Positions 1 through 61,965 of a stretch of 64,000 nt of DNA are shown here, in pieces (position 1 is the first letter of the stretch; each line of letters opens with the position of its first letter). The position numbers were made by a program, and so were the translations under genes. The stretch comes from Thermoplasmata archaeon (lineage in GTDB: Archaea; Thermoplasmatota; Thermoplasmata; Halarchaeoplasmatales; Halarchaeoplasmataceae), in contig JAWOAU010000011.1 of assembly GCA_046498385.1 (NCBI GenBank), positions 4,315-68,314 on the forward strand, written 5' to 3'. The notes under the pieces are model-generated. The model was not told the origin of the DNA and made no database searches. It saw only the letters and a program-made list of their open reading frames with translations.

Positions 1-3000
1 TCACGTAGAAACCTTGGAAATCGGCTTCATCATCTTCGTAGTTGTCCATCACCGTGTTGGTCACAACCCTGAACCGGATGTTGATAACGTTGCCTGAGAA
101 GTCCGATAGGTCAACGCTGAGCCTGTTGAGAGAGCTTGCGTATACCCAGTCCTCGCCTATATCTTCACCGTCGTAACCGCCGTCGTCTCCTCCGGAGACA
201 CCCCAAGATGCTCTTACTCCCAGATTGATGGCAACCCAAGTACGTCCACCGTTATCACTCACTTCCACCCTGAATCCCGGCGGAGGTTTGCCGTCCCTTG
301 AATTTATGTTGAATTTGAATTCCGCTTCAAGATCGGCGGTTTCGGCGTTCCGCAGGTCTATGGGATCGGTGATCAAACTGTTGTCGATACCTTCTTTGAA
401 CGAGTTCCACCATGCGATGGTCGGCTGCCCATCGCTGTCCATGGTGTTATTTAGCCACCATACATCATCGGAATCCATGGTCTCGTTCCACCAATCACCG
501 CTTCGGGTGGTGATGACGCTGGTATCGTCTATCCACCATCCGCCGGGTTTGACCCCGCCGCCGTACTGTTTGTAGTAGAACCGAATTCTGACGCTCTCCA
601 ATGCTTCATAGGAAATATCATATTCATCCTGTAGCACCCACAGTTCCCGCATTAGGTCGAGCTTAACGAACTCCCAATTCATGGTACCGCCGGCACTATT
701 GCCGCTCCAGCAGAAGTGGATATCCTGCCCGAAATCATCCAAATGAGGATCTACGCTGTCGGAATCCAACAGATTACCCGTATAGGGCCCTATATGCGGT
801 CTTATATATCGCCATAGGTAGTCGTTTTCCGGGTCATCTAGATCAGGTACACCGATCTCTATATAAGCCCCGTTTACACCCTGAATCAGCCTATACCTGT
901 GCCAGAAAGTGAGCCACGCTTCATCGGCGTTGGTTAAGTCGAAGACCGGTGTAACCGCCCACTTATCGAAGTTTTCTGGTTCATCCATTAGCTCGTAAGA
1001 ATCGTCATCATTCTGCAGTACGGGGATGTCCACGCTGGTGAGATTCTGGGGGCCTGATAGAGATGCGCCAATTTGTTCAAATATGTCATCAAGATCTGTC
1101 CCATCTTCAGAGTAGTGATACTCTGCTTTTGATGTATTGGCAATTCTCCACAGATTATACTCTACAGTACCGGATTCTATTGCTAAAGGATCTGATGGAT
1201 TGATATATACGTGATTGTTAGGATCATTCCAAAAGTTTCCTTCAGCTACCGGTCTAACGTTTGTAGTAACTGCATCCCAGTTAGGTATATCTTCATAGTG
1301 TTCTAATCCCAAACCAATTGTAAATATTGGAACAGAAGCTCCTAAAAGACCTTTCCGTGTTCCTCCAGTAGGATATACCCAACCCCAGTAGCCAGGCATC
1401 TCTTTGTAATCGTTGAGCTGATATTTTCCTATACGCTCAGAGTATGGTTCTTCGGGATAGTTTGGAGAATCCATGTTGTGCCATGGACTCCATTCTTCGC
1501 TATTTTGTTCAGCCCTATCGAAAGCTACGGGGCGTGGGTTATTTATTGCTGCAGTATCACTTGCCCGGAGGTCACATCCATCGGAAAGAACTACTACTGC
1601 GCGCTGTAATTCAGGTTCTATATCGGCGTATGTATGGACCACCTCCCAATAACCCAAACCTACCGCATCCCATAACGGGGTTTGACCGCCATCCCACCAT
1701 AGAGCGTTTTCTGTATTTAACTCATCTTCTAAAGATTCCCTGTGATCGGCTAACTTATGATATGCACGACCTTCAACAAGATGTACCGCAGGATTAGATC
1801 CACTTCCACCCATGAGTAACACTATGGATTCATTTGATAACTGATTTATTAGGGTAATAGCACCTTGTTGAGCAGCCATCAACCGTTTAATACCTGCGGG
1901 CGTGTCATGATCTTTCATTGAATCAGAACCGTCTATAACAATCGCGACGAACACATCCGCCTTTTGTGCAATATCCCCTTCCGGTTCATACATGAAGTAG
2001 CTGTAGGGATCGCTGAAAGAGTGGTCGCTCACCACCTCGACTCCCTCAGTATCGGACCAGTTACCTGCAACGTTGGTATCCAGATCTGTGTACTCCTCTC
2101 CCATGTAATCTATGGGGCTCTCTCCGCTTATGTAGGCCAGCTGTGCCTCGTGGGACCACTTGCCCGGCCCTTCCTGCATATCGTCCCAGAAGTAGTAAAC
2201 AGGGGTGGTGACGATGGCCTGGTTGTTGAAGCCCATAAGGTCATCGGTTTCCCGTTCTCCGGGTGGATTGGGTACCTCGGGTATCTCATGCAGTGGATCC
2301 ACGATCACCCTGAGATTCCTTTCGGGAGATGCGAACTCGGGGGTCCATCTTAGTTCAACGTCAGCGAAGCCGTTTGCAGGTATGTATGCCGATTCGGAGC
2401 CGAGATGGTTATCACCGTCTCTGAACCGTACCAAGGCTTCGGATTCAACGCCACCGAGGTTCTGTATTCTTGTGGTGATAAAGTAAGACCTACCGATGTT
2501 GGGGTTATCACTCTCTATATCTATATCAACATCGGACACACGCAGTTCGATCCTCTCATCGTAGTGACTGAACCAGTTGTTCACCATATACAAAAATTCA
2601 GCGTGCATGGTTTCCGGTGAATAATCGAATCCCAACAAATCGTACCATTGCTGATATTCCTCGTTTATAGGAGTCCTGAAATGCGATATGTCTACCGAGG
2701 AGAACACCAGGTTGTAGCCTGCCCCGGCTACTCGGTGACCGTAAGTACTATCCGATTCTTTCAATATGGGTACTCCGTCACCCACGGTCTCGTAGGCAAA
2801 GGCATCGTCGTAGGGTTGAAGGCGATAGTTTATCCCATGGCTCAATGGATCATCGAACACGCCTTTCAGTGCTTGAGGGGCTTGTTCTTCTGCATAAGAA
2901 GACCTATCTATGCATAGGAAGAATTCAAAGATCTCATCCATCATAGGATCACCAGAAAGTCCTTGTAGTGCACCATCTCCCATGAGAAGCAGATTCTGAG

Positions 3001-5362
3001 TTCCGGGATATTCCGTATATTCCATGATATCTACCATATCATTCCAACCTAATTCACCTTCTGTTCCCGTTGTCCATATCACCAGATTAAAATTCCTCAT
3101 GAAGTCCGGGGTCAAATCAAGGTCGGTAGCATTTCTTAGCATGTAGGCATAAGTCATATCACCATATGCATTTTCAATATTCTCCACGGAATAATCAGTA
3201 TCCGTTGTATCATCGACTATCAGTGTATGGAATCTTACATGGATAAATATGTCCTGATCCGTGTAGGTTATATCGTTGTTCTCCATATTGGCCTCGGGTA
3301 TACGTTGGTATGGATTCACCACTATCTTGAGTTCGTGGGTACCCACGGGTTCCGCCACCCAATCGAACTGTACAGTTATAGCGCTGTTTTTTGGTATTGC
3401 ATACTCCTTGAATTTTATCTCTTCATCGTTCATCACCAAAGCCACTTCGGTGTAGTTTTGGTCCAAATCACCGTTATTACGTACGGTGGCGGTCACTTCA
3501 ACAGTATCTCTGTAATTGGGCATAGGGTTATAGAATTCCTGACTAGTTACCGCAAGATCGGTCATCCTCTCTTCCGATAGTCCACCGAGCCATGTTATAA
3601 CCTTGTTCACAAGGTCCGACCGGTGACCTGTACCTGCCTCCATAATGCTGTCGATTTTTACGGACTGAAAAAAAGTCCTGTATCCCCCGGGCCCCGTGGT
3701 GTTGTACGCAATGGCAACAGTCTCATTGTTTGTGTTGTCCCTGAGTGCAGGTTTTCCTTGATCAACGGGTATGATGTAATGATCTGGCTGATAGTCCATG
3801 TGTACATTGAATGTTTCCGCCTGTAGGAATATTCCTTCATGGATACCATCAAGATCGCCCAGCGGTGCCATAGCGTCGTTTCCCCTATCTGAATGAAGGT
3901 ATGTTTCGAGGAAGTCGTGATTACTGATGTCATCTGCGATATTTTCACCTATCAACCATAATCTATGGTTCTTATCCAAAAATTCTTCCAACTCATCTTT
4001 ATCGTCTTCGATAAGCGTGTCCGTATTCGATCCGGTTACCCAGATGACGAGGTCGTAGGCGGACAGCTGTATTTCACCTACATCGTATGCAGGACCGCTA
4101 CCTCCAGAAGGTATGATAAAAGTGTCATGACTATAGCCTAATCCCATAAGGGTGTTTCTCATGGTCTGAGCGTCCTGGCTCAAGGTGCTGCTGGTTCGGG
4201 ATAAACCCTTGTCTACCAACAGTATGGTCTGTTGCACGTCTAAATGCTTGCTGCCGTATGCTACGTTGTCGTTGTAATGCGCCTCTACAGTTACGTTGTG
4301 CACCCCTGCAGGTCTTATCCTCCAATCAGCCATTACATCTCTTCCACCACCTGCGGGAACGGTTATGGTTTCCGTATGGACTATGCTCCACGTACCACCA
4401 GGGGAGGTGACATTGAATACGATATCGGCCATGGTTTGAGTACCCCCTCGGTTGTAAATGCCCGCACTTGCCGTTACCATCTCTCCACTGATGGGATATG
4501 CGGGGACGAACTCCATCCGCTGTTCGTCCACGCGAAGTTCAGCCTCATCGAGTTTTTCATCGGGCTCTCCTACGTTGAGTTCCAGATATGCAAAATCTCT
4601 GTTGTCACCTTCGTCGCACGCCCTTATATCCAATCTATAGGTGCCGTTTTCCAGGTCATCAGGGATTGTATGGCGCAAGTTGAAGCGGTAGACACGGTTA
4701 TCTAATCGGCTATGGCGGTACATATCTTTAACTTCGCCTCCGATAGGCTCTAGGTCTAGGGTTACATTTAGGTCTTCAAAGGGCGAATTCATGTCCATGA
4801 CCTCTACCCAGAAGGTAACTCTTTCATCAGGATATGCAAAATCATCCCCGACTATGGGATAATCTACGTCCACCGCTCTTATAATGGGAGCTAGTTCTTT
4901 AAATTCATCCCTTAGGTACATTTGGAATATGGTATGTGACCGGTACTGATCCAGCATTACCAGCTCTATCTTTTCCGCTATAGATAGTCTAACCTGTTCA
5001 GCGCCAGAGAATTCTAAGCGTGCGGTGGCGCCTATGGTCCACTCGGAATTTCCTCCGATGCTGGCACGTATATCGTCCTGTGATACACGTATCATATCTC
5101 GCCCTTCGTCGATAAAGAGCATCATCTCAAGGTCCTGTATCTCGATACTCTTTCCGCCCTCGTGTGATATATTCAGATAATAGGTGTCCAGTTCTTCCCA
5201 GGTTATGGATAATCTGCGGTGTTGTTGGGGTACGGGCGGTTCAAAATTTTGAACGCTGGCGAAGATGGCCGTAAAAAGCACTATCGTTATGCTTAGAGTG
5301 AGTATACTGCCCACTACCTCGGAAACACCTTCTTTGTCCAGCTTAAACCCTCTTCTTAACAT
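1..5362 (-). CDS. Giant acidic secreted protein, paralog of the next gene. It has an N-terminal archaeal type IV pilin-like (class III, PF07790-like) signal peptide. The C-terminal end runs off the window start, so the CDS is partial.
   Basis: The ORF track omits it because there is no in-window stop. Manual reverse translation from the ATG (reverse complement of 5360-5362) gives MLRRGFKLDKEGVSEVVGSILTLSITIVLFTAIFASV... and stays open to position 1. An SD-like GAAGGT lies 8 nt upstream. At positions 1-140 the nucleotide and protein sequences resemble the C-terminal end of the 5368..11994 ORF. Internal segments (..DKGLSRTSSTLSQDAQTMRNTLMGLGY.., CARDB-like NYGG blocks) parallel gene 2. Confidence 0.7.
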   Translation of the reverse strand, partial: MLRRGFKLDKEGVSEVVGSILTLSITIVLFTAIFASVQNFEPPVPQQHRRLSITWEELDTYYLNISHEGGKSIEIQDLEMMLFIDEGRDMIRVSQDDIRASIGGNSEWTIGATARLEFSGAEQVRLSIAEKIELVMLDQYRSHTIFQMYLRDEFKELAPIIRAVDVDYPIVGDDFAYPDERVTFWVEVMDMNSPFEDLNVTLDLEPIGGEVKDMYRHSRLDNRVYRFNLRHTIPDDLENGTYRLDIRACDEGDNRDFAYLELNVGEPDEKLDEAELRVDEQRMEFVPAYPISGEMVTASAGIYNRGGTQTMADIVFNVTSPGGTWSIVHTETITVPAGGGRDVMADWRIRPAGVHNVTVEAHYNDNVAYGSKHLDVQQTILLVDKGLSRTSSTLSQDAQTMRNTLMGLGYSHDTFIIPSGGSGPAYDVGEIQLSAYDLVIWVTGSNTDTLIEDDKDELEEFLDKNHRLWLIGENIADDISNHDFLETYLHSDRGNDAMAPLGDLDGIHEGIFLQAETFNVHMDYQPDHYIIPVDQGKPALRDNTNNETVAIAYNTTGPGGYRTFFQSVKIDSIMEAGTGHRSDLVNKVITWLGGLSEERMTDLAVTSQEFYNPMPNYRDTVEVTATVRNNGDLDQNYTEVALVMNDEEIKFKEYAIPKNSAITVQFDWVAEPVGTHELKIVVNPYQRIPEANMENNDITYTDQDIFIHVRFHTLIVDDTTDTDYSVENIENAYGDMTYAYMLRNATDLDLTPDFMRNFNLVIWTTGTEGELGWNDMVDIMEYTEYPGTQNLLLMGDGALQGLSGDPMMDEIFEFFLCIDRSSYAEEQAPQALKGVFDDPLSHGINYRLQPYDDAFAYETVGDGVPILKESDSTYGHRVAGAGYNLVFSSVDISHFRTPINEEYQQWYDLLGFDYSPETMHAEFLYMVNNWFSHYDERIELRVSDVDIDIESDNPNIGRSYFITTRIQNLGGVESEALVRFRDGDNHLGSESAYIPANGFADVELRWTPEFASPERNLRVIVDPLHEIPEVPNPPGERETDDLMGFNNQAIVTTPVYYFWDDMQEGPGKWSHEAQLAYISGESPIDYMGEEYTDLDTNVAGNWSDTEGVEVVSDHSFSDPYSYFMYEPEGDIAQKADVFVAIVIDGSDSMKDHDTPAGIKRLMAAQQGAITLINQLSNESIVLLMGGSGSNPAVHLVEGRAYHKLADHRESLEDELNTENALWWDGGQTPLWDAVGLGYWEVVHTYADIEPELQRAVVVLSDGCDLRASDTAAINNPRPVAFDRAEQNSEEWSPWHNMDSPNYPEEPYSERIGKYQLNDYKEMPGYWGWVYPTGGTRKGLLGASVPIFTIGLGLEHYEDIPNWDAVTTNVRPVAEGNFWNDPNNHVYINPSDPLAIESGTVEYNLWRIANTSKAEYHYSEDGTDLDDIFEQIGASLSGPQNLTSVDIPVLQNDDDSYELMDEPENFDKWAVTPVFDLTNADEAWLTFWHRYRLIQGVNGAYIEIGVPDLDDPENDYLWRYIRPHIGPYTGNLLDSDSVDPHLDDFGQDIHFCWSGNSAGGTMNWEFVKLDLMRELWVLQDEYDISYEALESVRIRFYYKQYGGGVKPGGWWIDDTSVITTRSGDWWNETMDSDDVWWLNNTMDSDGQPTIAWWNSFKEGIDNSLITDPIDLRNAETADLEAEFKFNINSRDGKPPPGFRVEVSDNGGRTWVAINLGVRASWGVSGGDDGGYDGEDIGEDWVYASSLNRLSVDLSDFSGNVINIRFRVVTNTVMDNYEDDEADFQGFYV

Positions 5363-5367
5363 GGATA

Positions 5368-8300
5368 TCAACCTTCTTCTATAGAGCTACCGCTCACGAT
5401 AACGTTATCAACGTAGAAACCGGCATCCTCCCCGGGATCATCGTAGTGATTGTAACTACCGGTGGTTGTGATCATCCTGAATCGTATGCGGATAACTTCA
5501 CCTCTGAAGTCAGATAGATCCGTCTCCAACCTAGCTAGAGACTCGGCAGAGGTCCATCCGTGACCTATGTCTGTTCCCTGATATCCATCACCGCCGCCGG
5601 AAACACCCCATGAAGTTCTAACACCCAAGTTGATGGCCTGCCACGTCCGTCCGCCGTCGGTGGTGATCTCCACCCGAAATCCGTCCGGTGGTGCGCCGGA
5701 TTGAATATTGAAATTGAACTTAAAGTACGCGCTAAGTGTTGCATTTCGTGCGTTTGTCAGGTCTATGGAGGTGGTTATCAAGCTGTTGTCTATTCCGCTC
5801 TTCAGGTAATCTCCGTCGGGATCGGTAGGATGAGCGTTGCGCCACGCGGTGGTCGGATTTCCGTCCCAACCGGTGACCTCTTCCGTTCTCCAGACGTCCC
5901 GATGAGAATCAGTCAGATCATTATCGCCTCTGCTCACCACCATCCGTACGTCATCCAGGTACCAACCGTAACCTGTACCACCACCGTACTGGGTGTAGTT
6001 GAACATTATCCTTACATCGTCCTCATAACCCTCGGGAACGTACCGCAGCACGTTTATCTGTACCCTGTCCCAGCCGAAGGCTCCCCCACCGCTGGTACCA
6101 CTCCACGCGAAGTTGATATCATTCCCGAAGCTGTCCGTTCTTGTAACATCCATGTCAAGATTACTGGTGTAGGCCCCTTCCGTTGGTATTGCGTAGGTCC
6201 ATGCGTAACCGTGTTCGTCCACCCAATCTGCATCGAGATCCTCATCGGCCATCACGCCTACCATCACGAAACCACCATTGGTACCGGTAACCATTCTGTA
6301 CTTCGAGCGGAAGACGAGTCCAGCTTGCTGGTAATCCTGGAGGCTGAAGGATGGTGTGATCGCGGTTTTGTTGGTATTTTGCTCTCCAGGTTCACCGGGG
6401 TCGAGGTCATCGGGATCCTCTCCCTCAGCAACAGTGGTGAATGACCATGTTGCGGATTCATTCGTCATTGTTCCATCAAATGCTATTGCATACCATGAGT
6501 ATTCAACTTCATATTCAAGACCGTACCATCTAACCCCCGGGGTTCTAGTTCCACTGGGAACATCAAGATCGAAACCGATCAAATTGTCGTTGGATGCATC
6601 AAAGAATGCCACATCCATTGCTTTATCATCCGGGTGGGACACATATACACTCAGACTCGGTGTTGTGCTAACTGATGTTGCCCCGTCGGTGGGGTTTGGG
6701 TTTGTAGGTGAATCCGGAGGGTTTATTGCGGAATCCGAATGGGTAAACCCTTCTATACGAGAATTGTGATCTTCATCACCCCATGAGAAATATGAATATG
6801 TTCGTGTCCACCAGTATCCGTCCCTCTGTGTATAGTAATAAACAGTCCATTCGTTATCACGTAAGCTAACAGCACCCAGTTGTTCTGTGGTGAATTCGGC
6901 TCTTTGATTCCATGCACCACTTCCAAATCTATCGTAAACCCTCACAACGATGGAATCGGTAGTTGAAATTGAACTGTAAGGAGGTGTCCATGTTGCAGAT
7001 TGAATACCCTCGCCGTTTGAACTGCGTGATACTTGAGCAACAGGAGTTCCCGTTGTTATCTCTTCCGTACCACCCATCTCGTCCCGGGCCCAAACTCTTA
7101 TGCCCCATGTAACTGCAACATTAGAATCGATATCGTCTCCAACCGTATCAAAATCCAACCCGGGGCCGTCGGATTCCAATCTATATGTATCCAAGCCGTT
7201 GACATCCCAGGTCGTTGTTTTCATATATCGTGTTTCCGTAGTCTGTGCCCAACTATTTCTTGAAGTATATTCAGTACCAGTATCGTAGATGGCTATATCG
7301 TTGTCGGGAATAGATGTAACATTACCGGCTTCCGCTGACTCCTGAACAACCTCACTGAATATCTGTTGGAATATGCCTCCGAGTTGATCTGAATCAGGGG
7401 CATAGAAGTAACTCCCGTTGGTTGACTTTGCTATCTGGATTAATTGATATTCGCTCGTGAACGGGTATTCGGATGCAAAGGGAGACATGTAACTGGCATC
7501 TCCTGAAGGCAGATACGCACTGGGTGATGTACCCAATGCAACCGTGTACGTTAACATCGGTGCATTCACAAGAGCCAAACGTTCTGTGGAACGACTACTT
7601 GATCTTCTGTATAGGAGTTCTATCCAATCCACACTACCGTCATCCCAACGTAGTACATCATTATTAGATCCACCTTGATCTCGGTAATCGAATGCATCAT
7701 CACCCCATTCGTGACCGCCATCAACTCCCCAGGTATGATCCAAAGGTCCAACCCCTCGAACGCATCCGGGGGCATAAATATTACTTCCTCTTTCCGGAGG
7801 ATCATCAGCAAAATGTTCATCATCACCGTCGGTGAATAGTATAGTCGCTTGAACATAGTCTTCATCAGGAATACCGGTTGGTCTTGGATTGTCAATCACA
7901 TGGTTCAAGGTATAACCTGATGCATCCCAAAGGGGCGTCCCCCCACTTGCTGTGAAATCGTCTACTCTGGATTTAAAGAAATCCTTGTTGTCGTCCGTCA
8001 TGTATCTGAAATCTTCCCATAGGAAGGAGCCATCATCTTTATGATAACTGTCCAAATTAAACAAAGCTACCCGATCGTTCTCATCGAACATGTCTATCAG
8101 ATCTTTGGTTGCTATTTTTGCATCCTCGATTTTATCCCCGGACATACTTCCCGTGGTATCTACCATAACGCCCATATCTATCGGTAACCTGCCGCCGCTT
8201 ATCTCTCCGCCGACGGACTCCTTGAGATGATACGAGTACGGGTCGCTGAAGGCGTATTCATCGGTATTATTGATACCCTCGGACATATCGTTGTCCCAAT

Positions 8301-11300
8301 CATCGATGATTTCGGTGTAAACCGAGTCGTACTCTCCACTGAGATATTCAAGGGGATGCTCTCCGTTGACGTTCATTATGGTGGCTTCGGTCTCCCAGTT
8401 ATCCGCCCCGCTCTCCATATCATCCCAGAAGTAGTAGACCGGCGTCTCTATGAGGGCGTGGTTGTTGAAGCCCATGGTATTGTCGCCGATCTCGTCCACG
8501 GTACAGCGGGGGTCCACCAGCACACGTACGGGACGTACCGGACCGGCGAACAGCGGTCTCCACATAACTTCCGCAGTCGCACTGCCCCCGGAAGGTATGT
8601 ACATGCTCTCAGAGGCGATGTGGGAGTCTCCGTCCTTGAAGCGGACCAGGGCATCGGAGGGACTGTGTCCTAAGTTCGTTATGGTAGCACTCAAAAGATA
8701 AGAACGGCCGAGCATGGGTTGTTGTTCCTCTACGCTTATGTCCACCGAGGATATCTTGAGTTCAACCCTCTCGTCAACGTTCCCTAGATGATCGGTGACC
8801 ATGTATGTTAACTCGGTTTGCACGGGTAAGGAATCCAAGTCGATGTCCTCCTGGAAATCGTCGTACCAATCATCCAGGTAGACAGGACCTGTAAGACGGG
8901 CAAGGTCCATACCCAGGAAGATCACCTTTGAATCCTCGTAATCGTTTCTCGCACCTATCAGGGCATCCTTCTCATCGTTGTGGTAAGTGTATGCGAATCC
9001 GTGGCCACCGTTCAATACAAAAGTAGTGTGGGATCCATCCTCACCGTCAACACTGTATTCCATACCATGACCCAGTTCGTCGTCTATCTCTCCTCTTATC
9101 TCGTGAGGTGCATTGGTAACATTTCCAATATCACCTAAATTTCCGCTTATACCCATCACATCGTCTATGAACCCTGAATCAACTTCCCTAATATGTTCAA
9201 GCACGTTATCGCCGCTCAAAAAGAAGCTAGTCCCTTCTTTTTTGTCAAGGAATTCCTTTATACTCTCGAGCACGTCTCCAGATATAGCCTCTTTTACTTC
9301 CCCTGCATCCCAGTACACTGTATTGTAGCGTTTCAGAGTTTCGTTTATGTCTATGGGATCCCCGTTTTCATCTTCTATGCTTTCATCTTGGTAAGTGTAA
9401 ATATTATGTGCGTACCCCAGTTCTTCCAAAGTGCTCTGGAGCGGCGTATCCTCTCCTTCGACCCGGGCATTCACCAGCATCACCGAGAAGCGCACGTTCA
9501 CCGTGTAGTCAACGTCGGTGTAGCGTATATCGTTGTTCTCCTGAGTTGTCTCTTCTACACGGTTGTAGGGATCAACGACTACCAGTATCTCATGCACGCC
9601 AACCGGTTCGGCCGTCCAGTAAAAGGTAACGTCCTTTGTCTCGCCCTCAGTTATGTTAACGTACTTTCTGTAGTCCTCTCCCCTGAGATAATTACCGTTA
9701 ACCTTGAGCCGTACTTCCACGTTCGTCATATTTTCCACACCGTTGTTGAGTATGGTCCCGGTTACGTTTACTTCTTGCTGATACATGGGATGTATCGGTC
9801 CGTAGACCCCGTCGAATTTCTGGTCGATCAGGGCAAGGTCGTTGCCGTGACGTTGGCTGATGTTTCCAAGCCATTCGAGTACCCTGCCGGCCATCAGTAA
9901 CCTGCTCCCGGGCTCCACGGACCTGAACATATAGGAGTTGAACATGGTCCTGTTTCTTCCGCCTTCCCAGCTAACACCCAGTCCACCTCCTCCGTCACCA
10001 TCTGTCATTGCAAGTGTCCCTTCATCTATTGCATCGATATATCCCCCTTTCCAGGTTCCGGTTGCGGGATAATGCTGTCCCTCGGTGAAAGGCGTGTCTA
10101 TACCGTATATCAGACTTTTAAAGGGTGCATCTGCATTTGCAATATCTATCTCTGCGTGCAGGTTATCTTGGAGCCAACCATCCCAACCATTTTCTTGAGC
10201 ATCGTTCAGGATACCTTCGCCTACGAGCCACAGGAATCCACCTTCTTCGATGAACTTCGCAAGATTCTCCCGGTCAGCTTCAGTGAGGGTTCTGCGCATC
10301 TCTATATTATCTCCTCCTAGGTCCCTCCTGGTCCTACCGGTCATCCATATGACTAGATCCTGTTCTTTCAGCGGAAACTCACCTTCATCCCAAAGGGGAG
10401 GTGAGTTTGTATATCTATAATCCTGATCTAGGCCGTCCAATGCCCCTTTCATCGCCCTTCCGTCGCTGCCATAGGTCTCTTGAGTATCGTCTACCAGTAG
10501 TATGATGGGACTTACGAACAATTCACTCCTGTCGATGTTCAAATCCGGACTGGCATCGCTACCGCCGGTTGAAAAGATGTCGTGCAGTTCGACGGTTATC
10601 TCATGTTCACCGCTGCCGTTCACCTGCCAGGTAACCTGTAAGTCCCTGCCACCTCCAGCGGCCACGTGGAGATGCTCTATGAAGCCTATATTTTCACCGT
10701 AGTCCAACTCATCATACACTTCGTGAGGCAGTCTATCGTAAAACGAAATGTTCATCCTGGCGGAGCTCCCGCCGTAGTTCTCTATGGTGGCCCGGACGGT
10801 AACGCTGTCTCTGTTCGTTGGATTCACAGGAATGAACTCCTGTATATTGACACGCAAGTCGGGCTCTTCACCTACGACTCCGGCCCGGCCCACGTTTAGC
10901 GTAATGTACTCAGACCGTGACCAGGCTACGCTATTGTTCATGGTCCCGTTAACCGCCAGCTCTCGAGATATATCTTCGTTTCCCGTATGTATGTATATCC
11001 GCAGCAAATACGTACCGTTATCCTGTTCTCTAGGCACCGTGAGGGACCCTGAATGGGGGTAAACGAACCGGTTACCTTGTCTGCTCATGTTGTACAGATT
11101 GGAACCCCATGCACCACCATCCTGGAATCCTTCTATACGTCCAAGGTCGACCATCACGTTATCTTTTATATCGTTCAAATCTCCGCCATCCCACTCTATA
11201 TTAGCGTAAAGAGAAACATCTTCTCCTGCATCGACGGCTACATGCCATGGTTGGGGGTACACCACGCCGGCTTCTTTAACATAGGGACGTTCGCCGAGGA

Positions 11301-11823
11301 TACCGCTGATGAATACTTCGCCATCCCACACGATGCCACCGTGGGTTATTATCAATACGGTCAGGCGGTCGACGGAGTTCTCCATCTCACTCCAGTCTTC
11401 ATAACTTAGCTTATCAGGTAGTTCGGTCACGTTTAACATAAGATTCCCTCCGATATCCCAGTATTGTTCATCCCTCCCGGTGATCTCGATTATCTCTTCG
11501 TCGTCGAACATGAAGCGGTGACTGCGAACCCTCTCGTCATAGGACACAATATGAAGACTGGATTCACGAATATTTATGGGATGTCCTCCTTTATGTTCGA
11601 TGGTTATGGTTCTGATCATCTCTTCATCCACCACCTCCCAACTAAAATTAGCTTCCATGGTCAGATAAGCGGTCCTTTCCGGCGATTCCAATCTTGTGAC
11701 AGCGGCAAAGATAGTGGAAAAGAGCACTACCGTTATAGATAAAACAAGGATGGTGCCTACCACTTCCGACACAGCACTTCCGTCTTTACTCAGTCTGCGT
11801 TTGCAAAAATCATTTCGTTTCAA
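5368..11823 (-). CDS. Giant (about 2,150 aa; ORF track gives 5368..11994, 2208 aa) acidic secreted protein. It has an archaeal type IV pilin-like N-terminal signal peptide, CARDB-like and FN3-like beta domains, and a vWA (MIDAS) domain. It is a putative pilus-associated adhesin.
   Basis: The 6.6-kb ORF is uninterrupted. The pilin_N-like motif KRRLSKDGSAVSEVVGTILVLSITVVLFSTIFAAV lies about 60 aa after the track's first Met. A likely true start is TTG at 11821-11823 (reverse complement), preceded by GGGGGT 7 nt upstream. The upstream 170 nt of the track ORF overlaps the divergent gene at 11963. The vWA motifs DTTGSMSG...ASGGTPLWDA...ILFTDGDD map to about 7800-8170. There are many N-x-S/T sequons. 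Confidence 0.75.
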   Translation of the reverse strand: MKRNDFCKRRLSKDGSAVSEVVGTILVLSITVVLFSTIFAAVTRLESPERTAYLTMEANFSWEVVDEEMIRTITIEHKGGHPINIRESSLHIVSYDERVRSHRFMFDDEEIIEITGRDEQYWDIGGNLMLNVTELPDKLSYEDWSEMENSVDRLTVLIITHGGIVWDGEVFISGILGERPYVKEAGVVYPQPWHVAVDAGEDVSLYANIEWDGGDLNDIKDNVMVDLGRIEGFQDGGAWGSNLYNMSRQGNRFVYPHSGSLTVPREQDNGTYLLRIYIHTGNEDISRELAVNGTMNNSVAWSRSEYITLNVGRAGVVGEEPDLRVNIQEFIPVNPTNRDSVTVRATIENYGGSSARMNISFYDRLPHEVYDELDYGENIGFIEHLHVAAGGGRDLQVTWQVNGSGEHEITVELHDIFSTGGSDASPDLNIDRSELFVSPIILLVDDTQETYGSDGRAMKGALDGLDQDYRYTNSPPLWDEGEFPLKEQDLVIWMTGRTRRDLGGDNIEMRRTLTEADRENLAKFIEEGGFLWLVGEGILNDAQENGWDGWLQDNLHAEIDIANADAPFKSLIYGIDTPFTEGQHYPATGTWKGGYIDAIDEGTLAMTDGDGGGGLGVSWEGGRNRTMFNSYMFRSVEPGSRLLMAGRVLEWLGNISQRHGNDLALIDQKFDGVYGPIHPMYQQEVNVTGTILNNGVENMTNVEVRLKVNGNYLRGEDYRKYVNITEGETKDVTFYWTAEPVGVHEILVVVDPYNRVEETTQENNDIRYTDVDYTVNVRFSVMLVNARVEGEDTPLQSTLEELGYAHNIYTYQDESIEDENGDPIDINETLKRYNTVYWDAGEVKEAISGDVLESIKEFLDKKEGTSFFLSGDNVLEHIREVDSGFIDDVMGISGNLGDIGNVTNAPHEIRGEIDDELGHGMEYSVDGEDGSHTTFVLNGGHGFAYTYHNDEKDALIGARNDYEDSKVIFLGMDLARLTGPVYLDDWYDDFQEDIDLDSLPVQTELTYMVTDHLGNVDERVELKISSVDISVEEQQPMLGRSYLLSATITNLGHSPSDALVRFKDGDSHIASESMYIPSGGSATAEVMWRPLFAGPVRPVRVLVDPRCTVDEIGDNTMGFNNHALIETPVYYFWDDMESGADNWETEATIMNVNGEHPLEYLSGEYDSVYTEIIDDWDNDMSEGINNTDEYAFSDPYSYHLKESVGGEISGGRLPIDMGVMVDTTGSMSGDKIEDAKIATKDLIDMFDENDRVALFNLDSYHKDDGSFLWEDFRYMTDDNKDFFKSRVDDFTASGGTPLWDASGYTLNHVIDNPRPTGIPDEDYVQATILFTDGDDEHFADDPPERGSNIYAPGCVRGVGPLDHTWGVDGGHEWGDDAFDYRDQGGSNNDVLRWDDGSVDWIELLYRRSSSRSTERLALVNAPMLTYTVALGTSPSAYLPSGDASYMSPFASEYPFTSEYQLIQIAKSTNGSYFYAPDSDQLGGIFQQIFSEVVQESAEAGNVTSIPDNDIAIYDTGTEYTSRNSWAQTTETRYMKTTTWDVNGLDTYRLESDGPGLDFDTVGDDIDSNVAVTWGIRVWARDEMGGTEEITTGTPVAQVSRSSNGEGIQSATWTPPYSSISTTDSIVVRVYDRFGSGAWNQRAEFTTEQLGAVSLRDNEWTVYYYTQRDGYWWTRTYSYFSWGDEDHNSRIEGFTHSDSAINPPDSPTNPNPTDGATSVSTTPSLSVYVSHPDDKAMDVAFFDASNDNLIGFDLDVPSGTRTPGVRWYGLEYEVEYSWYAIAFDGTMTNESATWSFTTVAEGEDPDDLDPGEPGEQNTNKTAITPSFSLQDYQQAGLVFRSKYRMVTGTNGGFVMVGVMADEDLDADWVDEHGYAWTYAIPTEGAYTSNLDMDVTRTDSFGNDINFAWSGTSGGGAFGWDRVQINVLRYVPEGYEDDVRIMFNYTQYGGGTGYGWYLDDVRMVVSRGDNDLTDSHRDVWRTEEVTGWDGNPTTAWRNAHPTDPDGDYLKSGIDNSLITTSIDLTNARNATLSAYFKFNFNIQSGAPPDGFRVEITTDGGRTWQAINLGVRTSWGVSGGGDGYQGTDIGHGWTSAESLARLETDLSDFRGEVIRIRFRMITTTGSYNHYDDPGEDAGFYVDNVIVSGSSIEEG

Positions 11824-11962
11824 TTTTGATACCCCCAAGGTAACACTACAGCAAGTCTTTCTAGAATATATAAACGTTGTGTGGTAATCACCATTTTCAG
11901 ATGGTAATCGCACTCGACAACATTTATATCGTGTACCGCACCTAAACCCTCTTTGAAATAAC

Positions 11963-12937
11963 ATGAAAATAGGGGTCGTAGGTGTCGGGTCCATGGGTCA
12001 GAATCACGCCCGTGTCCTTGACCAGATAGGGTATCTTGCAGGTGTTATGGATTCTAAAAAAACCGCAGCCAAAGCCGCGGGTGAAAAACACAACGTACCG
12101 TGGTTCACCGATCTAAAGGGATTCCTGGAAACCGGTATGGACGGGGTAACGGTGGCTACACCTGCACGGACCCATGTGGACGTATGCGAAGAGATGATCA
12201 AAGAGGGGATACCGGTACTGGTGGAAAAGCCCATAGCGCTATCGCTCCCAAAGGCTGAAAGTCTGGTGAAACTGGCAGAGGAACAAAACGTTGTTCTGGC
12301 GGCGGGGATGATAGAAAGACACAACCCGGTGGTATCCTCCGCAAAAAAACTTCTCCAGGACGGAAACGTAGGTGACGTGATAACCATCAGCTCCAAGCGG
12401 GTGAGCTCCTTTCCCACTCGTGTAGCGGATATGGGTGTGATCCATGATCTCGCCATCCACGACGTGGACGTCATGCGCTACCTCATAGGAGAAGAACCGG
12501 AAAAGGTATTCGCCTTGGGCGGTCCCGCCAATCAAGGTAAATACGAGGACCACGCCAACATGATGCTGCACTTTCCAGGAGACATAACAGGCGTTTTGGA
12601 GGTCAACTGGCTCACACCTCATAAGGTGAGAAAACTCTCACTCACCTGTTCCAACGATTTCATCGAGATAGACTACATCGCCCAGTCCCTTGTGCTCACC
12701 TCTTCCAGGCTCATGGAATACGATACCAGCAATCTGTTCGACATACCTCTTGAGCACAACATACGCAAGTACACAGTTAAGCGTCAGGAACCGCTCATGA
12801 AGGAGATGGAGGATTTCGTCGGTGCCGTTAAAAAGAAGCACCCGCCCCTAGTTACCGGTAAGGACGGCTTGTTGAGCATGAAAGTGGTGGATGCCGCCAG
12901 ACGCTCCATGGTAGAGGGGAAGGAGGTCTACGTTTGA
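11963..12937 (+). CDS. Gfo/Idh/MocA-family NAD-dependent oxidoreductase (UDP-GlcNAc(A) 3-dehydrogenase, WbpB-like)
   Basis: The N-terminal Rossmann motif MKIGVVGVGSMGQNHARVL and the 324-aa length fit the family. The 4-nt ATGA overlap with the downstream acetyltransferase is typical of wbpB-wbpD-like sugar-modification pairs. Confidence 0.75.
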   Translation: MKIGVVGVGSMGQNHARVLDQIGYLAGVMDSKKTAAKAAGEKHNVPWFTDLKGFLETGMDGVTVATPARTHVDVCEEMIKEGIPVLVEKPIALSLPKAESLVKLAEEQNVVLAAGMIERHNPVVSSAKKLLQDGNVGDVITISSKRVSSFPTRVADMGVIHDLAIHDVDVMRYLIGEEPEKVFALGGPANQGKYEDHANMMLHFPGDITGVLEVNWLTPHKVRKLSLTCSNDFIEIDYIAQSLVLTSSRLMEYDTSNLFDIPLEHNIRKYTVKRQEPLMKEMEDFVGAVKKKHPPLVTGKDGLLSMKVVDAARRSMVEGKEVYV

Positions 12938-15052: not shown

Positions 15053-16189
15053 ATGGGAACTAAAGAGCTCACGTACAAGGAGAAGGTCCTTCTATATCTT
15101 AGGGATTACAAGTCTTTGGGTGAAAAGAAGGTTTATCCTAGGGGGATCACTCAAAAAGGTATAGCTGAAGCCGTGGGCATGCGCAGGACCCATGTTTCCA
15201 GGGTGATGAGGGACCTTATAGAAAACAAAGAAGTAGAAGAATATCTAGGACACGTTAAGGGCCGTTCCAGAAAACTAAAGGTTTACACCCTAAGACCGGA
15301 GGGTGTGGCGAGGGGTGACGAGATAATAAAAGAACTTGAAAGTGTGTATGTACAGGTTTCCAAAGAAGGGAGAACCTTCAAGTCCAAACTCACCGAACTT
15401 GAAGAACTTTCTGGAAAAAGACTGAGCCTTCTGGAATCCATCGAGCTGGTTGAAACCTCCGATCAACCTATAGACCTGGATGAATCCGGTTCAAAACGGT
15501 TTGTGACTGAACTTTCCAAGGCACCTGTTGTAGAAGAACTATACGGTAGAAATGAAGTTTTAACGATGATGGACGAATGGATGAAAAAAGATATCCCGGT
15601 TGCGGTTTTGGAGGGGCGAAGAGGTTCCGGCGCATCGTGTACCGCCCGCCGTTTTCTTGATTCGGTGGATGACAGACACCTGCTTTGGGTCGATGTGCAG
15701 GATGATGATGTGATAAAGAAGATAGATGATTTTTTTTTCACCGTCCATGATGATAAAAAAAAATTGTTTCAGGCATTAAAGGAAACTCCTGCATTGATCG
15801 TGATCGATGATTATTACAACGTAGAGGACGAACTTGTGGACTTTTTTGTGGAGATGGTTGATCGATTGGATAAAGAATACCAAACTAAAATACTGGTGAC
15901 TACCAGGGAAGGTCTACCGGTCTACGAACGGTTTTATCACCGAGAACATTTGAAGGAGGGAAAAGTGGACCAAATAAGCATACCCCCACTTAACGAAGAA
16001 GAGGCGGAGTTGATACTGGGCAAAGAGTTGGAATCCAGCGCCCTCCGACGTATAATGTTGATGACCAAGGGTTCGCCCCAGATACTCAAACACCTCCGGG
16101 ACGGCCGTATCGATAAGATAGAGGGGGAAAGTGCATTGGTCAGGGAGCAGGTTTCACTGCTTATGTTTCTAAAGGAACAGACCCGCTGA
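15053..16189 (+). CDS. Winged-HTH plus P-loop-like (degenerate Walker A) domain protein, a putative regulator
   Basis: The N-terminal wHTH is GITQKGIAEAVGMRRTHVSRVMRDLIE. A central degenerate Walker A is VAVLEGRRGSGAS (no Lys) and a Walker-B-like segment is ALIVIDDYY. It resembles archaeal ATPase-domain regulators. Confidence 0.45.
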   Translation: MGTKELTYKEKVLLYLRDYKSLGEKKVYPRGITQKGIAEAVGMRRTHVSRVMRDLIENKEVEEYLGHVKGRSRKLKVYTLRPEGVARGDEIIKELESVYVQVSKEGRTFKSKLTELEELSGKRLSLLESIELVETSDQPIDLDESGSKRFVTELSKAPVVEELYGRNEVLTMMDEWMKKDIPVAVLEGRRGSGASCTARRFLDSVDDRHLLWVDVQDDDVIKKIDDFFFTVHDDKKKLFQALKETPALIVIDDYYNVEDELVDFFVEMVDRLDKEYQTKILVTTREGLPVYERFYHREHLKEGKVDQISIPPLNEEEAELILGKELESSALRRIMLMTKGSPQILKHLRDGRIDKIEGESALVREQVSLLMFLKEQTR

Positions 16190-48549: not shown

Positions 48550-48550
48550 T

Positions 48551-49872: not shown

Positions 49873-49873
49873 G

Positions 49874-51854: not shown

Positions 51855-51867
51855 GGGTTGAATTAAC

Positions 51868-57744: not shown

Positions 57745-58283
57745 GGAAGAATATACGATTGTGTGGAAGCGGTGGTCAGGGCATTATGACTGCAGGTTAT
57801 ATCCTTGGAAAAGCAGCATCGGTTTTCCATGACTACAATGCCGTACAGATGCAGAGCTATGGCCCAGAAGCGAGGGGAGGGGCGGCCCGTTCTGAAGTAG
57901 TTATATCCGACCGTGAGATCGGATACTGTGGATTACCTAGTACTGACAATATGATGGTGATGTCTCAACCCGCTTGGGACAAGTACCACAAGGACCTTAC
58001 AGAGGAATCTATCGTTGTATTGGACCCGGACCTAGTTGTCAATTATGATTTCGAAAATGTCATAGAGATTCCAGCCACCCAGATGGCTGAGGACCTGGGT
58101 AATAAGATCGTGGCAAATATTGTCATGATCGGCGGATTCAACGCTGTTACAAAGCTGGTTCCCGACGAGGCATTGGAGGAATCCGTCAAGGACAGCGTAC
58201 CCAAACAATTCACGGAATTGAACTTTAACGCCCTGAAGAGGGGAAGGGACTACGTTACCAGTCACCACACCAAGAAGGATTGA
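57741..58283 (+). CDS. 2-oxoacid:ferredoxin oxidoreductase gamma subunit (paralog 2)
   Basis: The motifs LCGSGGQGIMTAGYILGKAA...SYGPEARGG are present. Confidence 0.85.
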   Translation: MRKNIRLCGSGGQGIMTAGYILGKAASVFHDYNAVQMQSYGPEARGGAARSEVVISDREIGYCGLPSTDNMMVMSQPAWDKYHKDLTEESIVVLDPDLVVNYDFENVIEIPATQMAEDLGNKIVANIVMIGGFNAVTKLVPDEALEESVKDSVPKQFTELNFNALKRGRDYVTSHHTKKD

Positions 58284-60247
58284 CCTATCAGTATAACAAT
58301 GGTCAATATGATGGTACATACCATCAACACTCTGCCAAGGGCGAATTTAAATTCCGTAGGATCGGATTGGTACTTTATTCCCACCGAAAAATAGGTGATC
58401 ACCGCACTCATAGTTAGTAAATACCCCGCTATAACAAGGGTAAATTCGTAGGGAGTTATTATCCCCTGACCCGAGATGTCCATAAACACTCTATATAACA
58501 TTGAATAAAGGGCCACTATTATACCCATGACCACGGGAGCGAAGAACATGGATGTGGCTTCCATCATCTCCACCGATTGGACCAGCTCCGAACGTATATC
58601 CTTTTCCATCTCCTGCATATCCTTGAGATACTCGGAATTTTGTAATATGATGGTACCTGCGGATGGTGGACTCTTTTGAGAGACGGATATCACGGATTTC
58701 ATACTGGCTTTGATCGTCCTAGAGGGGTGTGAGTTCAAGATCCCTTTGTTTCCAAAGAGGGCATCTTTTAAAGGCATCCTTTTTAATCTCGTTAAGGTGG
58801 TTATGTTTTTAAACAAGTTTCCGGCCTTGGAGCCGCTCATGCTTTTTCCGGTCTCTTCTATGGATTTTTCTAGGGATTTCCCCTCGGCCATCCTGCTCCC
58901 CAGCTGAAAAAGTGCATCGGGAAATTCTTTCTCCAGTTCCAATATCTCCATCCTTTGCTTTCTTTGTTTCCAGGAACTACTTATAAGGTAGTAAGAGACT
59001 GCAAGGACGGGAGCCCATATCCAGGGCAGGGGCATCAAAAATTCCAGTTGAGTGCGAAATAACCATACTAATATTAGTCCCGAAACAAGGATCGCCGACG
59101 GTATATAGTATGCAGTTTTCTCATCAGTGTCCATGGACGGTAAAACAGTGGTGCCAGGGCGGTTGATCAATATCTTATATGAATAAACAAATGCACCGAA
59201 GGGTATCAGTATGTTCATCAGAAGGACCACGTGGGCCAGTTTCAGACCACCGGTCTGTTCAGCCTGTTCTTGGTATATTGAGGTCAAATCCAGACCACCT
59301 AGGGTCATCATAGGCATCATGGCGCCGATTATAAGGGGCAGTAAGATACCTAGGGCAAAAAGTATGGTAGTGGGTGTTTTAAGAGAATTGGAAAAGTCCC
59401 GTATCTTTTGCTTTGTTCCTGTTGTTATGATGTCGTTGGCACGTTGAAGGGTGGCCTCTAGTCCTTCTTGGGTATTTTCCAATACAGACGAACGGATAAC
59501 ATAAAGTGATCTTTTTAGGTCGTCGTTCCATTCGCCCCATTCGCCCGCAAGGGCTATGATTGAGTCCTCCAAACTGCTCCTCTGCCTCAGATACACTTCC
59601 CAAATGGCTTTTTTTAGCCTTGATGCCAGGGGTTCGTCTACATTATTCGCCGCAAACAATATCGCATTGTGCAGTGACGGATGTGCCCTCATGGACATGG
59701 TCATGTAATTTATCCCTTCGGGGGCGGAACCTATTGTTTTGGCTTTGAGCTGTTGCGATCTGATCTCAGGATAATTGGCTAAATAGACGAGCACGCCCAT
59801 GGGAGCGGCCAAAAATAATGGTATCACCCACAATAGGACGGATATAAAGCTTAACCCGTAGGTCAGGTGGAATATGGATACTATGACTAATAATATCATA
59901 AAGGTTACAAATGCTCCGAAGACGGAGAGCAGCATTATTTCTTCTTCCTCAACATCGTAACCTATGAATTCCGCGGTACGATCGAACTCCGCTTTGGTGT
60001 AGGAACGTTGAATAACTTTGTATTTTTTTGATTTTTTCTCTTTTTCTTTTAAGCACTTTTTGTATTCCAAAGAATCCTTTCCATGCAGCACCAGTGCCTG
60101 GACTAGGTCCCTTTCAGCATCCTTTAGTTTCCGACGGGCTTCAAGGTATTTTTCCTTTTTTTCCTTTCTCTTTTCTATTATCTCTACCCGTGATGCTCCA
60201 AACCTTTTGTTTACTGCCTTGCAGAGTTTGATATATTGATCAGACAT
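58262..60247 (-). CDS. Archaeal type IV pilus/archaellum-type membrane platform protein (FlaJ/TadC/PilC-like) with an N-terminal coiled-coil extension
   Basis: About 9 transmembrane helices and two cytoplasmic T2SS-F-like domains are present. The N-terminal 100 aa are K/E-rich and precede the first transmembrane helix. The gene follows the ATPase gene. Confidence 0.7.
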   Translation of the reverse strand: MSDQYIKLCKAVNKRFGASRVEIIEKRKEKKEKYLEARRKLKDAERDLVQALVLHGKDSLEYKKCLKEKEKKSKKYKVIQRSYTKAEFDRTAEFIGYDVEEEEIMLLSVFGAFVTFMILLVIVSIFHLTYGLSFISVLLWVIPLFLAAPMGVLVYLANYPEIRSQQLKAKTIGSAPEGINYMTMSMRAHPSLHNAILFAANNVDEPLASRLKKAIWEVYLRQRSSLEDSIIALAGEWGEWNDDLKRSLYVIRSSVLENTQEGLEATLQRANDIITTGTKQKIRDFSNSLKTPTTILFALGILLPLIIGAMMPMMTLGGLDLTSIYQEQAEQTGGLKLAHVVLLMNILIPFGAFVYSYKILINRPGTTVLPSMDTDEKTAYYIPSAILVSGLILVWLFRTQLEFLMPLPWIWAPVLAVSYYLISSSWKQRKQRMEILELEKEFPDALFQLGSRMAEGKSLEKSIEETGKSMSGSKAGNLFKNITTLTRLKRMPLKDALFGNKGILNSHPSRTIKASMKSVISVSQKSPPSAGTIILQNSEYLKDMQEMEKDIRSELVQSVEMMEATSMFFAPVVMGIIVALYSMLYRVFMDISGQGIITPYEFTLVIAGYLLTMSAVITYFSVGIKYQSDPTEFKFALGRVLMVCTIILTIVILIGQSFLVW

Positions 60248-61961: not shown

Positions 61962-61965
61962 GTAT

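Follow-up and report, generated by a model that had tools for sequence, protein, structure and literature searches.

A conserved tandem pair of giant pilin-headed proteins in uncultured Thermoplasmatota

Two giant genes in tandem

The opening 12 kb of a 64,000-nucleotide stretch of Thermoplasmata archaeon DNA (GenBank assembly GCA_046498385.1, contig JAWOAU010000011.1, positions 4,315 to 68,314; hereafter the window) hold two consecutive minus-strand open reading frames (ORFs), an upstream gene, A, and a downstream gene, B, which encode giant paralogous proteins headed by an archaeal type IV pilin module (Table 1). An earlier note on this DNA, made by reading the letters, had proposed two giant minus-strand genes of about 1,800 and 2,150 residues for pilin-like secreted proteins, and both ORFs are confirmed, at 2,151 amino acids for A and about 1,800 for B. 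It had also quoted the two N-termini and the gene junction correctly: only 5 nt separate the A stop codon from the B start codon, and a GAAGGT lies 8-13 nt upstream of the B ATG, just before the A stop. At related loci the tandem genes are likewise separated by gaps of 3-11 nt or overlap, and A and B are probably co-transcribed.

The mechanical ORF for A runs from 5368 to 11994 (2,208 codons), of which the first 57 codons (11824-11994) are an artefactual extension that overlaps a plus-strand gene for a GFO/IDH/MocA oxidoreductase (11963-12937). We place the true start at TTG 11823, giving 2,151 rather than 2,208 residues, because the N-terminus of an A ortholog (P0002) aligns there, with MNRKHF in the ortholog against MKRNDF in A and, over a longer stretch, MNRKHFCKRRLSK against MKRNDFCKRRLSK. 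The NCBI gene call begins at TTG 11838 and yields a 2,156-residue protein, deposited from a Thermoplasmata archaeon metagenome-assembled genome (MAG) as MFO8109113.1 (P0001) under the name 'CARDB domain-containing protein'. The TATA-like element upstream of A, about 27 nt before TTG 11838, is a putative promoter. Gene B begins with an ATG at 5362 and, as the earlier note had seen, runs into the window edge in its last codons. The cut falls inside a GFYV motif, and since all orthologs terminate 11-14 residues past this motif, that number of residues is missing and the full protein has about 1,800.

A and B are collinear and 27% identical, and the GC content of the region is the same as that of its flanks. 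At 48% GC, chance cannot account for ORFs that stay intact over about 2,000 codons. Both proteins are strongly acidic, as had been claimed for them, with a pI of 4.2 each (D+E about 17.5%, K+R about 6.7%); A carries 22 and B 15 N-glycosylation sequons, and each whole protein has 3-4 cysteines. We considered a proteome-wide 'salt-in' acidity as the source of this pI and rejected it, since the cytoplasmic proteins of the window are moderately acidic (pI mostly 4.4-6.6). The low pI is therefore mainly a trait of secreted proteins.

Pilin module and cargo domains

Judged from their sequences, A and B each start with a genuine, complete archaeal type IV pilin module and not with an ordinary Sec signal. 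Pilin_N (PF07790) scores 45.9 bits in A and 42.4 bits in B against a Pfam cutoff of 25.2; TIGR02537 (arch_flag_Nterm) reaches 14.1 and 17.8 bits, under its cutoff of 20. A profile built from 58 members of the family finds the solved type IV pilus subunit of Haloferax volcanii (8FJ5) with E 2e-10, its positions 12-126 covering residues 6-129 of the 145-residue chain, so that the match spans the globular beta-sandwich head in addition to the helix. The same profile matches Natrinema PilA2 (8GI2) and 9MYG, and residues 9-125 of B align with 8FJ5. The AlphaFold2 (AF2) model of the A N-terminus, a check that the earlier note had called for, contains a helix at residues 18-44 and a beta-sandwich domain at 55-171, the latter with predicted local distance difference test (pLDDT) values of 70-87. 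This alpha-1 helix is the one hydrophobic segment in each protein, and a sequence scan of both found no hydrophobic anchor at the C-terminus. The class III signal that had been proposed for these proteins thus has its expected parts, namely a small residue at position -1 and a single long hydrophobic helix, and in a motif scan of the whole window A and B were its sole carriers.

The predicted processing site is close to invariant across the family. The residue at -1 is Gly in 44 of the 58 relatives and Ala in the other 14; Val+1 and Ser+2 are each present in 56 of 58, Glu+3 and Gly+6 in every one, and Ile+8 is likewise invariant, giving a mature end that reads V-S-E-[VI]-[VI]-G-T-I-L-x-L-[SA]-I-T-V-V-L-F. 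The leader is basic family-wide (net charge +4 in A), and residues 18-42 of A carry no charge except E20. The invariant, buried Glu+3 recalls Glu5 of bacterial pilins, and we read it on this account as a packing residue; it would argue for helix-helix packing in a type IV filament over a passive membrane anchor.

Type IV pilins are usually 10-20 kDa. In A and B the pilin module is followed by a cargo of about 1,650-2,000 residues with a fixed architecture: an Ig-like domain, two successive units of a CARDB domain plus a GATase1/GIFT-like alpha/beta domain, a third CARDB domain, a von Willebrand factor A (vWA) domain and two jelly rolls. The Pfam search suggested in the earlier note found Pilin_N, CARDB, VWA or VWA_2 and InhA-like MAM in both proteins, the MAM and VWA_2 matches of B lying below cutoff. 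Its prediction of CARDB and Ig-like modules stands, with vWA and lectin-like modules in addition, and no sequence model detects in A or B the FN3 that it had suggested. The unit of CARDB plus alpha/beta domain is an internal duplication, the two alpha/beta domains matching each other in hhalign with E 6e-34 and the CARDB domains with E 1e-11 to 1e-13. Because all three cysteines of A fall outside the GATase1-like domains, a Cys-His-Glu triad is impossible there; on this residue distribution the GATase1/GIFT-like domains are non-catalytic and are not members of the class I glutamine amidotransferases.

The vWA domain follows a conserved 'VYYFWDDME..W' segment and retains an intact metal ion-dependent adhesion site (MIDAS), made up in A of D1222-x-T-x-S1226 (DTTGS), T1296 and D1332 and in B of DGSDS. 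The MIDAS columns are kept in 44-49 of 58 sequences, or in 51 of 58 if Ser or Thr is accepted at the second position. In PDB profile and Foldseek searches its nearest structures include the vWA domains of known adhesins from pili or fimbriae, namely Streptococcus sanguinis PilB, Porphyromonas Mfa5, Lactobacillus SpaC and Pseudomonas LapA; further structural relatives come from ITIH, PTMP1 and the calcium-channel alpha2-delta subunit. Between the vWA domain and the C-terminus, A carries an insert (residues 1500-1820) that is missing in B-type proteins, has no Pfam match and is modeled with pLDDT below 50 over most of its length. The shared C-terminal domain ending in GFYVDNV had been described as about 100 residues long; it is present, and it spans about 330 residues in two jelly-roll domains. 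The C-terminal segment of A alone matches InhA-like_MAM with E 8.7e-10, Foldseek relates the block to reelin repeats and tandem CBM22 domains, and the block is strongly conserved in alignments, although the AF2 model of this part has low overall confidence (pLDDT 56).

Several other assignments were considered for the cargo. HExxH and thioester motifs are absent from A and B. An identity as an M6 (InhA) metallopeptidase was rejected, since solely the C-terminal MAM-like domain matches and HExxH is lacking. No surface-layer (S-layer) family matched A or B in Pfam or NCBIfam, and membership among the archaeal S-layer proteins was rejected for want of an S-layer domain and of a C-terminal anchor, be it a transmembrane (TM) helix or PGF-CTERM. 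Neither DUF2341 nor a PilY1 beta-propeller was found in Pfam at E <= 0.1 with whole proteins or at E <= 10 with segments.

Family distribution, tandem conservation and neighboring genes

A word-indexed search returned 66 relatives, nearly all of 1.7-2.6 thousand residues with Pilin_N and CARDB, and all from Thermoplasmata or Thermoplasmatota MAGs or metagenomes. With a profile of the first 1,200 residues, 955 proteins below E 1e-30 were found among 1.84 billion cluster representatives, a count inflated in its lower-scoring members by CARDB repeats; about two-thirds of the best 150 matches span most or all of the N-terminal architecture. In a scan of the GTDB species, each represented by one genome, 301 stretches at 60 loci were confirmed, all in MAGs, whose labels are nearly all Thermoplasmata, Thermoplasmatota or the older Methanobacteriota. 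The host lineages include the soda-lake and hypersaline Ca. Haladaptatiplasma, Saliniplasma and Natronoplasma, the SG8-5 'Proteinoplasmatales' and UBA147-like groups; the searches for relatives found no homolog in cultured Thermoplasmatales or in any other cultured organism. Members are named in databases as 'CARDB domain-containing protein', 'type IV pilin', 'Ig-like domain-containing protein' or 'FlaG/FlaF family flagellin'.

Wherever enough of a contig is visible, two family genes stand head to tail, with three or four at some loci, and the A-then-B order recurs in dozens of MAG loci from different Thermoplasmatota lineages. The first tandem gene encodes 1,850-2,650 residues, and the last is of the B type, with 1,770-1,890 residues collinear over their full length with the B of the window. 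The closest complete relative (L064; related loci are cited by such numbers) encodes A' with 2,145 residues, 53% identical to A, and, after a 4-nt gap, B' with 1,820 residues, 43% identical to B over its full length. A convergent gene follows B', and the array in the lineage of the window is therefore a pair. Across the family, the first ~1,200 and the last ~330 residues are strongly conserved in architecture.

The paralogous origin of the pair, suggested in the earlier note, is borne out, and the duplication is old. In a simple neighbor-joining distance tree of the N-terminal 1,250 residues, A-type and B-type orthologs lie apart within each of two major clades, indicating that the duplication is older than the radiation of each clade. 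The tree is compatible either with one duplication at the root followed by partial homogenization or with two duplications.

The genes upstream of A are partly shared with other loci. The window and its closest relatives, L004 and L005, have in common a sugar-modifying pair (GFO/IDH oxidoreductase and hexapeptide transferase), a TPR protein, a GNAT protein and a 378-residue winged-helix/STAND-like protein. By tblastn, homologs of the last lie directly upstream of, and point away from, the giant genes in L004, L033, L044, L054 and L059, and a helix-turn-helix gene upstream of the pair in L066 and L068 matches window positions 15098-15400. We regard this winged-helix protein as a candidate dedicated regulator of the giant genes. 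A separate gene (16354-18120, minus strand) encodes a 588-residue acidic GLUG-motif protein (pI 4.3, 11 N-glycosylation sequons), homologs of which lie near giant genes in L023 and L049. In two halo-clade MAGs a divergent operon of nine genes, each of 72-165 residues, lies directly upstream of the giant pair (L001, 6663-9821, and L003, 6614-9837, both minus strand); its products look coiled-coil, short-TM or PRC-barrel-like, with no Pfam match on record.

Genes of type IV machinery accompany the pair in some lineages. In L066, which lies on a 471-kb JGI contig, and in L068, both distant family members, the genes after the giant pair encode, in this order, a pilin-like protein of about 550 residues, a 307-360-residue DUF7289 protein that scores above the Pfam cutoff and has a class III-type N-terminus, and a T2SSE ATPase that carries PilB3 N- and C-terminal domains. 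The giant genes of L002/L050, L053, L054 and L056 are likewise flanked by DUF7289-like genes, whose leaders read '[DE]-G|VS..IG'. DUF7289, of which we found no mention in the literature searched, appears to be an unannotated group of archaeal minor pilins or FlaF/G-like proteins. Directly upstream of the pair in eight loci is a 236-residue KaiC/ArlH-like ATPase (71-98% identity among loci), accompanied by a 312-residue coiled-coil protein with a double zinc ribbon. Archaeal type IV systems have KaiC-like ATPases among their known or predicted partners (PMC4858521), and the archaellum protein ArlH belongs to the same family (PMC10334743). At L049, two ordinary small Pilin_N pilins lie 1.4 kb downstream of the pair. 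Many non-halophilic loci have a protein of about 1,010-1,046 residues after the pair, with Peptidase_M14 and Peptidase_C11 domains in L002 and L067, and next to it a CARDB and zinc-ribbon protein of about 1,850-1,950 residues; these two genes and the pair seem to form a larger, conserved surface module of four genes.

Within the window there is a TadA/TadC-like ATPase and platform protein, preceded by a Cys-rich protein of 166 residues with four CxxC pairs and without a pilin gene alongside. Among NCBIfam models the ATPase ranks TadA-like above the archaellum motor, whose model gives 114 bits against a cutoff of 550, so the module is not an archaellum motor. It could possibly be the cognate machinery of A and B. 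The remainder of the window is ordinary archaeal chromosome, including an S13-S4-S11-RpoD operon, RadA, HypF, two 2-oxoacid:ferredoxin oxidoreductase operons and an Hdr-like cluster. A plus-strand redox cluster (45550-57744) comprises an HdrA-like flavoprotein of 999 residues, an MvhD/FlpD-like protein, several Fe-S proteins, a CCG-domain protein, an FAD_binding_2 flavoprotein and a 2-oxoacid:ferredoxin oxidoreductase, and suggests an anaerobic, electron-bifurcating metabolism.

Table 1. Coordinates of the giant gene pair, of its domains and of associated genes. Positions are nucleotides of the window unless marked as residues or preceded by the number of a related locus.
Feature	Position	Strand	Evidence or remark
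Gene A, giant pilin-headed protein, 2,151 aa	5368..11823	-	ORF and translation; 100% match to P0001; Pfam
Gene B, giant pilin-headed paralog of A, 1,787 aa visible	1..5362	-	translation; runs off the window at base 1
A-B spacer TATCC, 5 nt (TGA-TATCC-ATG)	5363..5367	-	sequence
Region upstream of A, TATA-like TTTATATATT at 11865-11874	11824..11962	-	sequence
A residues 1-172, pilin module, predicted site A17 before V18-S-E-V-V-G	11308..11823	-	Pilin_N; 8FJ5/PilA2 homology; AF2
B residues 1-160, pilin module, predicted site G12 before V13-S-E-V-V-G	4883..5362	-	Pilin_N; 8FJ5 alignment
A residues 180-1112, Ig-like to CARDB3	8488..11286	-	
A Ig-like domain	residues ~180-315		
A CARDB1	residues ~320-420		
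A alpha/beta domain 1, GATase1-like	residues ~430-655		
A CARDB2	residues ~660-770		Pfam 676-765
A alpha/beta domain 2, GATase1-like	residues ~774-1012		
A CARDB3	residues ~1020-1112		
A residues 1122-1500, conserved 'VYYFWDDME..W' segment and vWA	7324..8460	-	Pfam VWA; PDB profile; Foldseek
A 'VYYFWDDME..W' segment alone	residues ~1122-1210		
A vWA, MIDAS intact	residues ~1216-1500		
A residues 1500-1820, lineage-variable insert, beta-rich	6364..7323	-	unconserved in A1/A4 alignments
A residues 1820-2151, C-terminal jelly-roll pair (MAM, reelin-subrepeat or CBM-like), ends GFYVDNV	5371..6366	-	
B residues 1139-1772, vWA (MIDAS DGSDS) and C-terminal jelly rolls	47..1948	-	sub-cutoff Pfam; alignment with A
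378-aa winged-helix and STAND/AAA-like protein, divergent from the giant genes	15053..16189	+	weak Pfam/NCBIfam matches
TadA/TadC-like module	58262..62466	-	Pfam T2SSE, T2SSF; NCBIfam; ORF list
TadA/FlaI-family ATPase, 573 aa	60240-61961	-	T2SSE
TadC/FlaJ-like platform protein, 661 aa	58262-60247	-	T2SSF
DUF7289 (PF23960) clusters	L066 22665-25653; L068 22744-25495; L053 8066-8983; L056 17835-19531; L054 26554-29137; L002 8830-9840	- (L002)	
KaiC-like and zinc-ribbon genes	L067 7861-9618; also L042, L043, L055, L051, L045, L027, L057		non-halophilic Thermoplasmatota
M14/C11 protein and CARDB/zinc-ribbon protein	L002 20944-25550; L067 23290-27821; also L037, L041, L044, L047, L055, L058, L061		

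Proposed display through the pilin pathway, rival readings and known systems

We favor, at somewhat better than even confidence, the reading that A and B are co-transcribed, anciently duplicated giant 'modular' archaeal type IV pilin-like proteins that are anchored or displayed via the pilin pathway and used for binding. Each protein would be inserted by the Sec pathway and then cut by a prepilin peptidase after the Gly or Ala at -1, and the hydrophobic alpha-1 helix with its invariant Glu+3 would retain it in the membrane. A TadA/TadC-type machine encoded elsewhere may then raise A and B, either into a short stalk or to the tip of a filament of small pilins. They would occur there in low copy, at the tip or base and possibly paired with each other, because a 200-kDa cargo on each subunit would clash in the body of a filament; the same steric argument has been made for S. 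sanguinis PilB (PMC8179133). Placed in this way, the metal-dependent vWA and the glycan- or protein-binding modules would be presented for attachment to surfaces, particles or other cells, or for capture. We infer the cleavage, the location in a filament or at its tip and the ligand.

Several observations weigh against this reading. The sole TadA/TadC-like ATPase and platform pair of the window lies 46 kb from the giant genes, and tblastn with these two proteins found a T2SSE/T2SSF homolog within 10 kb of the family genes in 0 of the 60 scan loci. No prepilin peptidase, DUF7289, KaiC-like gene or small pilin was found in the 64 kb of the window (tblastn for DUF7289 and KaiC-like genes). Adhesins usually vary, whereas the architecture here is strongly conserved over the first ~1,200 residues and the last ~330, and on that account a structural role fits at least as well. 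Moreover, no family member comes from a cultured organism, and confidence in the C-terminal model is low overall (pLDDT 56). The type IV association, with pilus genes physically linked in distant family members alone, is supported at the level of the family and is circumstantial for the genome of the window.

The main alternative, which we consider possible though rather unlikely, is that the glycoprotein layer covering these S-layer-less Thermoplasmatota consists in large part of A and B, perhaps joined in a heterodimer, with the pilin N-terminus serving as a cleaved or uncleaved anchor and without any filament. The near-universal syntenic pair, its rigid architecture and the fixed length of B (~1,770-1,890 residues) would suit a coat, as would the missing linkage to pilus machinery at most loci and the acidic pI and abundant N-glycosylation sequons (22 in A, 15 in B). 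Cultured Thermoplasmatales bear an unidentified, disordered glycoprotein layer in place of an S-layer (PMC12448462), and archaeal class III signals do occur on proteins that form no filament, such as the Sulfolobus binding proteins (bioRxiv 10.64898/2026.04.22.720090). On the other hand, the family has kept the entire pilin head, beyond the helix alone, together with the invariant Glu+3, and DUF7289, T2SSE and KaiC-like genes adjoin the pair in several lineages. A homolog in cultured Thermoplasmatales was not found, nor was an S-layer family match or a C-terminal anchor in A and B.

We give a small chance to a reading in which A and B, rather than being rare tip subunits, are the units from which a previously unseen surface organelle or coat of S-layer-less Thermoplasmatota is built, or else its obligatory heterodimeric base. 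One form of it would be a 'bottle-brush' fiber or a membrane-rooted palisade in which 200-kDa pilins polymerize via their alpha-1 helices, with Glu+3 driving the packing and the KaiC-like ATPase and winged-helix regulator exerting control. If this were true, the extracellular protein layer of the phylum would be identified, and no type IV filament subunits larger than A and B would be known.

It is doubtful that the proteins are instead an anchored scaffold, a substrate-trapping or docking platform for the degradation of extracellular proteins or polymers by secreted peptidases, and not attachment adhesins. The match of the C-terminal domain to the MAM domain of InhA-type M6 peptidases is consistent with such a role, as is the Peptidase_M14/Peptidase_C11 protein of ~1,046 residues that follows the pair at many non-halophilic loci, but this neighbor is missing in L064, which has a convergent gene in its place, and in the other halo-clade loci. 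The hosts include predicted protein degraders, for example the MAG named 'Proteinoplasmatales SG8-5'. The top Foldseek matches of the N-terminal model in the PDB are alpha-2-macroglobulin and the complement proteins C3/C5, along with a mastigoneme; their TM-scores are about 0.1, these are generic multi-Ig chains, mere strings of beta-sandwich domains, and we rejected them as a functional lead. Thioester and HExxH motifs are absent as well, and with only 3-4 cysteines per protein the GATase1-like domains have no catalytic Cys. Finally, that the pair is an assembly duplication (a concern that the earlier note had raised), a chimeric contig or a set of decaying pseudogenes, as the MAG origin of the sequence might suggest, has a practically negligible probability and is excluded by the 27% identity of A and B, by frames intact over ~2,000 codons, by a GC content equal to that of the flanks and by the recurrence of A-then-B in independent assemblies from many studies.

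The closest functional parallel to the favored reading of A and B as displayed modular pilins comes from bacteria. In S. sanguinis, PilB (pilin plus vWA) and PilC (pilin plus concanavalin-A-like lectin) likewise graft functional modules onto an N-terminal pilin (PMC8179133); the vWA domain of PilB has an intact MIDAS, the family vWA profile matches 7B7P (E 1e-4) and Foldseek matches 7BA2. The jelly rolls of A and B are lectin-like in turn, and steric reasoning predicts a tip location in both cases. The bacterial proteins carry a pilin of the N-methylation type, whereas A and B carry the archaeal Pilin_N, which is their sole pilin family, with no N_methyl-type family found in Pfam at E <= 0.1. 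Because the N_methyl/IPR012902 signature is absent, the likeness is functional and architectural and not one of membership. The two groups differ also in size, A, B and their relatives having 1,800-2,600 residues and ~12 domains against ~430 residues in PilB; the largest modular pilin named in a survey has 860 residues (PMC8179133). The conserved tandem pair, usually outside a pilus operon, sets the archaeal family apart from modular pilins, in which the repeated units of CARDB plus GATase1-like domain are undescribed.

Among archaeal proteins, the PilA-family pilins of Haloferax volcanii and Natrinema (8FJ5, 8GI2) share with A and B a homologous N-terminal region of ~125 residues (helix and head) within the same Pfam family, and have a leader that resembles D-x-A followed by VSPVIGVILMVAITV. 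They differ in being major filament subunits of 145-165 residues with Pro at +3, where A and B have Glu+3 and an extension of ~2,000 residues. Large secreted multi-Ig proteins have been proposed as archaeal pilus adhesins, namely the DUF2341/PilY1-like arCOG03508 and the Ig-rich arCOG05616 and arCOG07037, and KaiC-like ATPases and vWA proteins have been reported as partners of archaeal pilus systems (PMC4858521; bioRxiv 10.64898/2026.04.22.720090). A and B lack the DUF2341 domain and the PilY1 propeller of these adhesins, and they unite pilin and adhesin-like part in a single protein; the searched text of the two sources does not mention the family. The substrates of the Sulfolobus bindosome similarly combine a class III, pilin-type N-terminus with a large non-pilin cargo and are encoded by genes unlinked to the assembly ATPase. 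The cargo of A and B does not have the fold of a solute-binding protein, and the ATPase of the window scores 81 bits against the cutoff of 1000 for BasE. A module of Ig proteins from Thermococcales, VARTIG, was considered as well and rejected as unrelated.

Full-text literature searches, in which subscription journals were thinly covered, returned no description of the A/B family. What had been put forward as a novel module is thus new in part: an archaeal family of giant size, fixed architecture and conserved tandem arrangement that appears undescribed, built on concepts that are already known, as both bacterial modular pilins with vWA or lectin domains and large adhesin-like proteins in archaeal pilus loci have been reported. 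The grafting of functional modules onto pilins is a recently recognized bacterial strategy, which the A/B family would extend to archaea and to proteins of 200-280 kDa. The combination of Pilin_N, CARDB, GIFT-like, vWA and MAM domains is new and has been hidden under the annotation 'CARDB domain-containing protein', and the two-gene layout is conserved over a large uncultured part of the Thermoplasmatota from soda lakes, hypersaline settings, marine sediments and groundwater. The finding breaks no paradigm. What it offers for the surface biology of an uncultured archaeal radiation is a candidate that is concrete, conserved widely and so far unstudied. A and B are candidates for the attachment of wall-less, S-layer-less archaea to particles or partners, or for the material of their surface layer.

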